A stretch of 64,000 nucleotides of DNA from Escherichia coli (GTDB taxonomy: Bacteria; Pseudomonadota; Gammaproteobacteria; Enterobacterales; Enterobacteriaceae), in the NCBI RefSeq assembly GCF_003018255.1, contig NZ_CP027440.1, one strand, 5' to 3'. The position numbers were made by a program. The stretch's first letter is position 1, and each line of letters begins with the position of its first letter. Of the stretch, positions 30,001 to 33,000 are shown one piece after another.

Positions 30001-33000
30001 AAACGCAATGTCATACAGCTTGTTCGTGTATGAGGAGTTCAGCTCTTTCATAATGGGGTACAGGTGTTTGCTGATGCCCTGGGCTTTTTCCATCCAGAGC
30101 TGCATGTAGCAAAGGAGGATGATTTCCTCGGCTGTGAATTGTGGCTGAATATGCGACTGCTGTTCGGTTTGTGTTGTTTTTCCCTGGCTGAAATAGCAGT
30201 CTTCCAGTTTTTCGAACACTTCCCATGCCTGATCAGTTTCGAGCATTTTTGCGTGACGGGCTGCTCCGCGTTCTGTCCAGAGGATGAGGGAGCGAACGTT
30301 ACGGGCGATTTTCACAGAAGGTCTTAAAGACATGCTGTGCTTAAATTCGCGCAACTCCTCATTCTCAAGTAAAAAGTAGTGCTTACCGATAACAAATCGT
30401 CCAGAATTCCGATTGAAATTTTTTCGGATGTAATCTGGTTCTGTGCCATATAAGCTGGCAAGAAGCTCTGTAGTCACCACAGGTATATTACTAAATGAAA
30501 TTATGGAGAGGGACTCCACGGAGATGGTTTTCATGCTTTGTGTCCTACTTGATATTTTGATTTACCCCTTTTGAGAGGGTGACCGGGCGCTCAAAACCGC
30601 AAGTAGTCGGCGGGCATATTCCCATTGCTGGTATTGTATTAGCCGCACGCCCGGTCATAAACCAAGAAGACTGGACACAAAAAAACCGCATGTCTGTCGG
30701 GCGCGGTAACCGCTACTTGCTAAGGTGTTTTGAGCACCTGACGCAGAGTATCCGACAGAATGTGTGGTGTGTCAACATTTCCTTGTGTAGATGTTGACAC
30801 CCTATTAGGTAAAACATTAACGTTGTTTTAATTTGTTAATAATCATCAATTTAATATTAATGTTTGGAGTATAAAAGCATGAGAAAATCCCCTTTGGCAT
30901 GGTATACGGATGTTCTTTTTAATAACTACTTCAATTATTCAGGGCGAGCCAGTCGAAGAGAGTTCTGGTGGTATTATCTGTTTAATTTAATATTCTTGGG
31001 AGTTCTTTTTTTTATCGGATATACATTAGATAATACTGGCATTAGTTATGGGTTTTATATACCTTGCGTTTACGTATTAGCTACGATTATTCCATCCATT
31101 ACATTGAAAGTCCGCAGACTCCATGATATTGGGTTAAGTGCCTGGTACTTGTTTATCTGGTGCATCCCGTATATTGGTGGCTTTATATTGTTCGTTATGT
31201 ACTGTATCCCGTCAGAAAAAGGGGATAATAAATACGGTGCATATAGTATTTAATCCCCGCCAGATAGTCGCATCAAAAAGTACTGGTTATCTTATCTATT
31301 AGATCAAATGTCTTCTCATCAATGTACCAGTACTTTTTATCATCATTTGGGTATTCAACGAAAACCGTCCATAAAACCTCTTCCTTTTTAATGAAAGATA
31401 AAAGAAAAGTCTCTATATCCTTTGAATTGTCTTTGGGAATAACTGTAATAAATGAAGTCCATTTTTCCAACTTTTTACTTTTTATCTGTTTGGCCTCCTT
31501 AGGTAGAAAAATTTTAGCATTTGATTCACGTTCCAGTCGGTCTAATAATTGTTTGGCATATATATCAACAGGAACACTTATGTCACTTGCTTTATGACGT
31601 AATTCAATAGTTGGTGTATACTCGTTCGAAAAATAGAAAACACCATCACTGGGTGATGTTATCAGAGTCTTTTCTAAATATGTGTATTTGTATGTTATTG
31701 GATTAAACCAATAACAGTACCATTCTGGCTTTAATTGCCCGCTATAAGATGTGTTATTATTGTGAACCTTACACACAGGATAAATGTTTTCTATATCAGT
31801 CCACTTACTTTTATCCTCTTTTTTTTGTGTGTCTATGACGTTTGAGGAGTGTTTTTGGTTGAACACTTGAATATTTAAAAAAACTAAAAGTATGTTTCCG
31901 ATAATAGATGCAATAAGCATTTTCTTCAGTTTTGAGTTATCCATATGCATCCCCTTCATTGTGGACAATTACTCTTTGTCATAATTATAACTAAGTCATT
32001 ATATTTCGTGTTTATTATGTTATAATGATATTTGAATGTATAATTATACTCCTGCATCATTTTACACTCGCCAGAATTTAATTTTTTTTGTATTTCTAGG
32101 CTCATTAAGTTTTTAATCTCTTCACCATCAAAAAATGGCGACATATCTTCATTAATCCCATAAATATTATAATAATGATTAAGTGTATTTCCTTCTACGG
32201 TTGCAGCAATCCATGTAGTATAATCATCTACTTTAATAGGGAATTTTTTCTTGGATAGTTCATTTTTTAAGCATGAGGCAATTTTATCTGCATCTTCTTT
32301 GTTTGATAAAATATCATCAATTTTATTATCACCGAACTCAGTTGCAATTATCTTTACAAAGATCAGCAGAATAATAAACATTAATGCTGCTCCTGTTTTT
32401 TTTATTGCTCCTAATATTTTGTTTCCTGTCATCTTGCAAATCTAACATAAAATTTAATGAGTCTTATTAATAAATTTAATTTCTTATGAGTTGTCAACCT
32501 TCCATCAAGCAAACCGTGATCTAACAGCATGACTGTCTGCTTGATATGTGTTGTCGTCAACACAGTACAGTCCTTGAATACATATAACAAATTTGTTATG
32601 TTGATACCTATGAACTACACTATCGAATACTACAGTGAAGAGGTCCGGCTGGAAGTCGATCAGCTTCCATTGAGTATGCGTGTCCGATACAAACATCTCA
32701 TTGAACGTATGAAGGTATACGGCAGCAATCTCGGAGAACCTCATACCAGCGCCTTTGGTGATGGGCTTTTCGAACTCAGAATTAAAGGCAACGATGGGAT
32801 TGCACGTGTTTTTTACTGCACTCTGACAGGGAAACGCATCATTATGCTGCATAGTTTCATTAAGAAAACGCAGAAAACACCGCCAGCCGAACGCAAAAAA
32901 GCTGAAGCCAGAATGAAGGAGGTTAAGCATGACTGGTAAACGCATTACACCTACCATGACACACGACGAAATGGCAGCCAAATGGATGGAGGATCCGGCT

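Follow-up and report, generated by a model that had tools for sequence, protein, structure and literature searches.

A three-gene cassette in a Stx1-converting prophage of Escherichia coli encodes two predicted envelope proteins and a YhaH paralogue and may serve superinfection exclusion

What do two small AT-rich genes of a Shiga toxin (Stx) prophage encode, and to what unit do they belong? The question is raised by a 64,000-nucleotide stretch of E. coli contig NZ_CP027440.1 (RefSeq assembly GCF_003018255.1), hereafter the window, which is a Stx1-converting lambdoid prophage of the Shigella phage 75/02 Stx/POCJ13 type. Both of these phages show 99.7% identity to the segment 31273-32432, in which the two genes, here called A and B, lie on the minus strand. 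Their products are 'hypothetical' in every record, including those of 75/02 Stx and POCJ13, two Stx1 phages of clinical relevance. The present analysis gives both proteins predicted folds and a likely location, and redefines the unit as three genes: A, B and a gene for a DUF805 inner-membrane protein. The trio is read here, tentatively, as an envelope-protection moron of the prophage. The genes and the signals of the A-B transcript are as follows.

Gene A: 31956-32432, minus strand, 158 residues, ATG start.
Gene B: 31273-31944, minus strand, 223 residues, most likely with an ATG start.
DUF805 (PF05656) inner-membrane protein gene: 30879-31253, plus strand, 124 residues, three transmembrane (TM) segments (RefSeq; Pfam on orthologues; hydropathy).
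Shine-Dalgarno-like AAGGGG: 31950-31955, minus strand, 5 nt upstream of B's ATG at 31944 (read from the sequence).
TTGACA, a -35-like hexamer: 32492-32497, minus strand, 59 nt upstream of A's ATG (alignment of the window with the cassette loci L002, L007 and L008).
Intrinsic-terminator-like hairpin, GGGGAUUAAAUAC...GUAUUUAUUAUCCCC then UUUUU: 31216-31258, minus strand (RNA fold).

The two co-directional minus-strand open reading frames (ORFs) of 158 and 231 residues described by the first-pass annotation were found at 31956-32432 and 31273-31968. The stop/start overlap claimed for them hinges on TTG 31968, the first possible start of B, from which the 231 residues are counted. Four observations support a start at ATG 31944: it is preceded by AAGGGG, the PHROG profile of B begins at residue 9 of the long ORF, RefSeq and GenBank annotate B as 672 nt, and the B homologues all start at the equivalent Met (MxNSK/MNEQR). 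Therefore, an 11-nt gap follows A's stop, and the arrangement is operonic without overlap. The 158-residue form of A is supported by I6, K11 and K12, which lie upstream of the alternative start M18 and are invariant in homologues of about 30% identity; the 75/02 Stx record annotates A from this internal Met18 (141 residues). Comparison of the window with the second cassette allele (L002) gave ratios of nonsynonymous to synonymous divergence (dN/dS) of 0.39 for A and 0.34 for B, and these values, together with the homologues of about 30% identity that keep the same synteny, indicate that both are real coding genes. At 27.5% (A) and 31.2% (B) GC against 49.3% for the window, they are its most AT-rich genes, as had been noted, and the 477-nt windows with the eight lowest GC values begin at positions from 31701 to 32051. 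In E. coli EC2 (L001 13379-13732, corresponding to about 32089 of the window), A carries a 1-nt deletion in its A8 run (nt 337-344), which leads to a 117-residue product. Three further complete genomes match a 2001-nt query over only 2000 nt, and EC2 is the only one of these that was aligned. The EC2 frameshift may reflect true inactivation, a tract prone to slippage or a mistake in the assembly.

The TTGACA hexamer is invariant in four cassette versions, two of which have no toxin-antitoxin (TA) pair. No -10 element could be clearly assigned upstream of A, where a promoter scan called no consensus sigma-70 promoter and the conserved -35 is the only promoter element. The terminator-like hairpin begins 15 nt past the stop codon of B and shares sequence with the 3' end of the DUF805 ORF, which is convergent. 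L002 and L007 have this hairpin too; in L010 and L019 its place is taken by GC hairpins without homology to it (z = -4.3 in L019). These predicted signals are best explained if A-B is an operon complete in itself, with a promoter and a terminator of its own, which is the anatomy of a moron.

The DUF805 gene had been described as divergent from the pair. The coordinates showed instead that it is convergent with B, with the stop codons 19 nt apart, and that the divergent neighbour of A is a Gp49/HigB-type toxin gene followed by a helix-turn-helix (HTH) antitoxin gene. These genes, with A, B and DUF805, make up a mobile cassette.

Mobile cassette: 30666-33239, 2.57 kb, comprising the TA pair, A, B and DUF805 (blastn of the window against L002 and L004).
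Toxin gene: 32610-32939, plus strand, Gp49/HigB-type (RelE/ParE superfamily), divergent from A (RefSeq annotation).
Antitoxin gene: 32929-33237, plus strand, HTH_3-type, overlapping the toxin stop by 11 nt.
TA pairs divergent from A-like genes at a distance of 110-190 nt: 32610-33237 (plus strand) in the window; L010 4158-4851; L015 1303-1868; L019 3665-4401.

The cassette recurs elsewhere in other E. coli prophages, in the pL arm near int, with 86.75% identity (blastn; gene content of L002-L006); its right boundary is 33239, the antitoxin gene forming that end. Counting the different prophages, it occupies four moron slots, namely the nin region, the pL arm near int, a position downstream of cI and a restriction-modification (RM) system, and a position after Q. 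The toxin was assigned through a PF05973 match of its L002 orthologue, a TIGR02683 match below that model's cut-off and an NsnC-like PADLOC match, and its dN/dS between the window and L002 alleles was 0.06. Four toxin families were found in the same slot, Gp49 (PF05973), RelE (PF06296), HigB-like (PF05015) and a VapC PIN toxin: the Salmonella cassettes carry the RelE or the VapC PIN toxin, and the A-like gene P0009 is divergent from a HigB-like pair. The close divergent placing of A-like genes and TA pairs of different toxin families suggests that the two are coupled in function or regulation, or that they share a hotspot of insertion. The cassette persists without a toxin in L030 and without any TA pair in L007.

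The first-pass annotation had described a two-gene cassette. A and B are indeed conserved genes, but the unit is larger. Prophages of Salmonella enterica keep the A-B-DUF805 order and orientation with identities of 32, 34 and 44%, respectively, to the window, and the three genes co-occur at 30-45% identity in E. coli and Salmonella prophages. In every lineage the GC content of A, B and DUF805 is 27-37%, compared with 45-48% for the TA genes, suggesting that the trio is the coherent core of the cassette. Two loci, L007 and L008, have A and DUF805 with B precisely absent. The commonest Salmonella form has B and DUF805, with toxin and A deleted. In this form (L030 3518-5118; L020 4517-6112) the RelE toxin and A are gone in a single deletion, leaving an orphan HTH antitoxin, the B-like gene and DUF805; the B-like protein occurs in 371 assembly-collection blocks. 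Because variants lacking A and variants lacking B both exist, DUF805 is the constant member of the unit. It is also the most conserved of the three across all pairs compared, the periplasmic proteins diverging faster.

Hydropathy analysis (Kyte-Doolittle, 19-residue windows of at least 1.6) bore out the claim of one N-terminal hydrophobic helix in each protein, the only segments being residues 6-36 in A and 5-29 in B. Both N-termini carry a net positive charge, and Lys, Asn, Tyr and Ile together account for 35-40% of the residues. Since each protein combines an N-terminal export or anchor segment with a conserved Cys pair, A and B are likely to be located in the envelope, in the periplasm. The structure of each was modelled from a shallow alignment of 5-8 sequences.

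The N-terminus of A is of the Sec type, with K5, K11 and K12 in the n-region, a hydrophobic stretch at 14-30 and a possible signal-peptidase site, I-I-A30|T31; there is no Cys before residue 54 and no lipobox. The AlphaFold2 model, built with the profile-search alignment, contains a confident domain (predicted local distance difference test score, pLDDT, about 85; predicted TM-score, pTM, 0.71), for which the best structural matches are PA3611 and AspS, a type II secretion system (T2SS) pilotin, including the AspS-GspD complex. AspS (also YghG, GspS-beta or EpsS) and PA3611 share with the predicted model the alpha/beta fold and a conserved disulfide-type Cys pair. The pair of A, C123/C156, is conserved in all complete prophage homologues; one Cys lies in the helix that precedes strand 4 and the other at the C-terminus, as in E. 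coli YghG. The AspS disulfide, Cys74-Cys111, is reported to be conserved in AspS homologues and in PA3611 (PMC3542185). However, identity to these proteins is only 12-13%, no significant hidden Markov model (HMM) or profile match was obtained (hhalign of A against E. coli YghG, E = 0.53), and A, unlike AspS, lacks a lipobox, is prophage-borne rather than part of a T2SS operon with a Vibrio-type secretin, and has PsbP-fold and DUF805 proteins as partners where AspS has a secretin. The PA3611-like secreted proteins (QSregVF) are closer in having a signal peptide without a lipobox together with the PA3611 fold, but A has no match to a Pfam HMM. The possibility that A is a true AspS pilotin was rejected on the grounds of the missing lipobox, the missing profile match and a prophage context without secretion genes; as judged from the model, A is a member of a new family with the AspS/PA3611 fold and not a pilotin. 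A match of one alignment member to T4 Spackle (E = 0.067) was taken as chance.

B has a predicted signal-anchor helix at 9-28, in which the polar residues S13, N17 and Q26 are invariant, together with a low-confidence linker of about 45 residues and an invariant Cys pair, C58/C77. As no small-residue signal-peptidase site was seen, B is probably a signal-anchored periplasmic protein. Residues of about 75-223 were modelled as a Mog1/PsbP/DcrB fold (pLDDT about 80, pTM 0.61). Foldseek against AFDB50 returned PsbP_C and DUF1795 proteins, and the structural matches include DcrB, PsbP, Smlt3025 and the type VI secretion system (T6SS) immunity proteins Tsi3, TplEi and Tli4 (Tli4_C). With the envelope proteins of this fold, a set comprising DcrB (DUF1795), Tsi3, TplEi, Tli4, the Eag chaperones PA0094 and SciW and mycobacterial LpqN, the predicted model of B shares the alpha-beta-alpha sandwich. 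It differs from them in its low identity (7-12%), the lack of a Pfam match, a TM helix as anchor instead of a lipid, the additional Cys-pair region, the long low-confidence linker and the lack of an adjacent effector gene. A and B are not paralogues of each other (BLASTP E = 0.39). To judge from the models, the folds of both proteins are those of non-catalytic protein-binding scaffolds or adaptors of the envelope.

The two alleles of the cassette differ mainly in B. When the window is compared with L002, nucleotide identity is 95% for A and 99% for DUF805 but only 70% for B (56% at the amino acid level; synonymous divergence, dS, 0.89), and the diverged B alleles keep the TM helix and the C-terminal 11 residues. 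Because this divergence stands amid a near-identical A and DUF805, the sequences indicate that an anciently diverged B allele was swapped into a conserved cassette frame, which is how a determinant of specificity or immunity behaves.

The first-pass annotation recognised no family for A or B. This held when A, B and their alignments were searched against Pfam, NCBIfam, PADLOC and PDB sequences, with nothing significant returned: A had no Pfam match even at E ≤ 10, the members of its alignment (A3) gave no family at E ≤ 0.001, and B and all members of its alignment (A5) had no Pfam match and no significant match among PDB sequences. PADLOC-DB v2 contained no match for A, B, DUF805 or the A-like and B-like proteins of Salmonella. 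It did not hold for PHROGs, as A and B each fall in one of unknown function (19308 and 21161), nor for folds, which are recognisable in both. An exhaustive profile search with A against 1.84 billion representatives gave only 11 matches. Five of them, P0008-P0012, share an FP-x-x-x-D-x-x-T strand motif, and P0012 is a lipoprotein with a lipobox (LASC); P0013-P0015 were set aside as repeat proteins matched on short stretches. Word-indexed homologue searches returned close E. coli relatives only, scans of species-representative genomes with the B and A profiles no relative of either, and a metagenome scan near-identical copies only, while scans of viral contigs added two divergent loci that match the Salmonella form.

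The third member of the unit is a full-length paralogue of two host proteins. In BLASTP against E. coli K-12, the prophage DUF805 protein is 34% identical to YhaH (E = 3e-22) and 35% identical to YhaI (E = 1e-24); its identity to the Salmonella cassette copy is about 44-45% (E = 1e-41). The three-TM layout and the GRAxRxE and RRLHD motifs of YhaH and YhaI are conserved in it, and it differs from them in its location in a prophage, its AT-richness and its constant pairing with A, B or both. In the 75/02 Stx and POCJ13 records the gene is unannotated (KF766125.2 16337-16708; KJ603229.1 16325-16696), although the encoded protein is 100% identical; a literature search on POCJ13 found no paper discussing the A and B genes. 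Lactobacillus phage LBR48 has a DUF805 gene between its repressor/ImmA genes and the integrase gene. The repressor-integrase slot is a classic site of superinfection-exclusion genes in temperate phages of Gram-positive bacteria.

A literature search on the term DUF805 alone yielded nothing functional, and the following result came via the gene names. Mutants of E. coli TK001 in yhaH resist phages PhiWec188 and PhiWec190 and are rescued by complementation, and YhaH was described by the authors as a required inner-membrane protein (one preprint and one paper). For the DUF805 proteins of E. coli, this requirement is the one piece of functional evidence, and it points to phage entry. Since YhaH, the paralogue of the cassette protein, is reportedly required by two E. 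coli phages, superinfection exclusion gains an argument.

The reading favoured here, with somewhat less than even confidence, is that A-B-DUF805 is a non-enzymatic envelope-protection moron, most likely for superinfection exclusion, with B as its specificity subunit. DUF805, a diverged YhaH/YhaI copy, would sit in the inner membrane. B would be tethered beside it by the conserved polar TM helix, with its variable PsbP/DcrB-fold binding domain facing the periplasm, and A would be exported as a soluble or anchored, disulfide-stabilised binding domain of the AspS/PA3611 fold. The module would then bind, one-to-one, a protein that reaches the periplasm or the inner membrane, most likely the apparatus with which a superinfecting phage using a YhaH-type entry factor delivers its DNA. 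Binding would block this delivery step, which amounts to superinfection exclusion. Within the module, B would act as the specificity subunit. Expression in the lysogen, the physical association of the trio, its target and its protective phenotype are all points that we infer.

Several features of the locus are those of superinfection-exclusion systems: the unit is prophage-encoded, located in the envelope (from topology) and autonomous (conserved -35 and terminator). It also stands in a defence-rich neighbourhood, which includes TA modules, a DUF4145 protein with weak similarity to PD-T7-4 and, in L007, an RM system. Well-known examples of superinfection exclusion by phages and prophages are T4 Imm and Sp, HK97 gp15, P22 SieA, lactococcal Sie2009 and the lipoproteins Cor and Llp. 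Like these, A and B are small anchored or periplasmic proteins without enzymatic domains, encoded by an autonomous AT-rich moron. No sequence or fold relationship to the set was found, and, unlike its members, the cassette has three parts, one of them paralogous to a host entry factor, with TA modules and antirepressor-like genes led by an sRNA-Xcc1 RNA motif as its systematic flanks. The general kind, a small envelope-located prophage moron, is thus well known; what is new, as far as the models go, is the composition, with one protein of pilotin fold, one of PsbP/DcrB fold and a paralogue of YhaH between swappable TA and antirepressor flanks. The suggestion of an envelope-associated function made by the first-pass annotation is in keeping with the export and anchor segments, the Cys pairs and the three-TM partner, and of the two activities it had proposed, superinfection exclusion is the leading idea. 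The other, abortive infection, found no specific support, as there was no PADLOC match and no effector-like domain was found in A or B.

A bolder form of the superinfection-exclusion reading, which we regard as improbable but worth stating, is a new class in which a decoy or dominant-negative YhaH paralogue works with two interchangeable periplasmic catchers, one of pilotin fold and one of PsbP/DcrB fold, that capture phage ejection proteins. If this were true, DUF805 proteins would act as a general portal through which phage DNA crosses the inner membrane, and the presence of many DUF805 genes in the lysogeny modules of temperate phages, including those of Gram-positive hosts, would be explained. 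Exclusion of phages via a YhaH-like protein would tie the large DUF805 family to DNA entry across the inner membrane, and would constitute a new prophage-encoded defence with a possible effect on phage-therapy host range in Stx-producing Shigella and E. coli.

A number of points weigh against superinfection exclusion. The cassette is rare, being present in 7 of 5426 complete E. coli genomes (the window allele in six, a second B allele in one). The structure models rest on the shallow alignments noted above, the function of a cassette that matches nothing in PADLOC is deduced from sequence and models, and the link to YhaH consists of the 34% paralogy and the two PhiWec188/190 reports. A three-part complex is not obligatory, judging from the variants without A or without B. 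In addition, A-B is always co-directional with early lytic operons, so that a lytic role is possible, and the relative P0010 of A stands in a toxin-immunity position. The last two points lead directly to rival explanations.

P0010 (140 residues; profile E = 3.5e-6) is encoded on a metagenome contig (L012 3034-5423), 57 nt downstream of an Rhs protein (RHS core domain, 54.6 bits against an NCBIfam cut-off of 32.5), the classic position of an immunity gene. The C-terminal 289 residues of the Rhs protein contain a stretch with 59% Gly, Ala, Ser, Thr and Val and only 6% charged residues, and this nearly uncharged, small-residue-rich composition suggests a membrane-inserting toxin. An orphan Rhs C-terminus and a small ORF follow P0010, and the array resembles a toxin-immunity array. 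A and/or B may accordingly be orphan immunity proteins that neutralise periplasm- or membrane-acting effectors of the T6SS, Rhs, contact-dependent inhibition (CDI) or colicin type from competitors; lambdoid prophages would then ferry orphan immunity genes. The fold of B, common to the periplasmic immunity proteins Tsi3, TplEi, Tli4_C and Smlt3025, and its allelic diversification, which is typical of immunity genes, fit this explanation. However, the Mog1/PsbP fold is very widespread and hence not diagnostic, none of the prophage loci examined has an effector gene inside the cassette or close to it, a single relative of A and no relative of B was seen in a toxin locus, and the constant DUF805 partner would be left without a role. 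Orphan immunity is the main rival of the favoured reading, though we consider it unlikely. Still less probable is a function in the lytic cycle, in which A-B would be expressed from the early pR or pL transcript and modify the envelope for the phage, for example by blocking re-adsorption to, or injection into, an already infected cell or by modulating DUF805, which convergent transcription would silence. Such a function would account for the observation that in all four contexts A-B is co-directional with the early operon and DUF805 and the TA pair are always opposite, as well as for the 19-nt spacing of the A-B and DUF805 stops and the position of the A-B terminator inside the DUF805 ORF. The conserved -35 and terminator point instead to autonomous expression, the L007 position after cI and the RM system is a slot expressed in lysogens, and if exclusion took place during lytic growth, it would still count as superinfection exclusion.

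The TA pair offers a further explanation, that DUF805 or the whole trio is a membrane-damaging effector or sensor under antitoxin control and that infection leads to membrane collapse, i.e., a TA-coupled abortive infection. The conservation of the divergent arrangement of A-like genes and TA pairs in four lineages with four toxin families, and the inverted repeats in the shared A/toxin intergenic region, would be expected from such coupling, but the cassettes without the toxin or without any TA pair, the higher GC content of the TA genes, which suggests a separate origin from the trio, and the lack of PADLOC matches argue against it, and YhaH and YhaI are ordinary chromosomal membrane proteins with no known toxicity; a mechanism of this kind is accordingly given a low probability. 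A and B are not themselves components of a type II TA system, given that the TA pair is separate (32610-33237), that A and B carry export signals and that neither has any TA similarity. Very unlikely is an accessory role in secretion or virulence, with A as a pilotin, a secretin chaperone or a mislocalising anti-pilotin of T2SS-beta GspD, a type IV pilus or a type III secretion system, which would alter secretion or piliation of the Stx lysogen. The resemblance of the A model to PA3611 and AspS, extending to the AspS-GspD complex, and the lipobox of P0012, like that of AspS, would be in line with this role, as would the report that AspS binds the secretin S-domain, for which a hydrophobic groove has been proposed (PMC3542185). 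Without a lipobox, however, A cannot ride the Lol pathway; it matches no pilotin family in Pfam and its hhalign comparison with YghG was not significant, no secretin or secretion gene lies nearby, and B, DUF805 and the allelic diversity of B would remain unexplained.

Beyond the cassette, the following features of the window and of the other loci were recorded.

nanS-p-like esterase gene: 23013-24953, on the strand of the stx genes, downstream of A-B.
stx1B: 25446-25715, downstream of A-B.
stx1A: 25725-26672, on the same strand as stx1B and the esterase gene, downstream of A-B.
ORF6N/KilAC antirepressor-like gene: 29866-30534, minus strand, led by an sRNA-Xcc1 motif.
sRNA-Xcc1 (RF02221) motif: 30573-30656, minus strand (Rfam, 79.6 bits against a gathering score of 53).
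sRNA-Xcc1 in other loci (Rfam): L002 7341-7429; L007 7141-7224; L015 3060-3150; L019 6630-6714; L020 6615-6699; L030 5621-5706.

The sRNA-Xcc1 motif lies 10 nt beyond the homology boundary of the cassette. In seven of the eight lineages examined, the cassette is flanked by this motif and an antirepressor-like gene, the motif standing about 40 nt upstream of a gene of the ORF6N/KilAC type in the window and of the AntA, Rha or Bro-N type elsewhere, and the unit adjoins the A/B/DUF805 cassette at four different prophage positions. A pairing of sRNA-Xcc1 with ORF6N genes has been noted for APSE phages. It looks as if sRNA-Xcc1 is a cis-acting leader of antirepressor-like genes, and its adjacency to the cassette seems non-random. 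With swappable TA modules on one side and sRNA-Xcc1-led antirepressor-like genes on the other as recurrent flanks, the region has a recognisable moron hotspot architecture.

A DUF4145 protein (33464-34210, plus strand) with a weak PADLOC match to PD-T7-4 (E = 1.5e-3) adjoins the cassette and may represent a further moron of the defence type. An 88-residue minus-strand ORF (33292-33558) overlaps its gene, and L015 likewise has a DUF4145 gene close to its A-like gene. Just downstream of stx1B, an STnc100 small RNA (RF02076, 164.7 bits) was located at 25165-25367 on the minus strand. In the A/toxin intergenic region, a 17-nt inverted repeat (82% complementary) at 32504-32545 lies just upstream of A's -35, and a perfect 16-bp palindrome, ATAACAAATTTGTTAT, stands at 32584-32599 just before the toxin start; both are candidate operators for the antitoxin.

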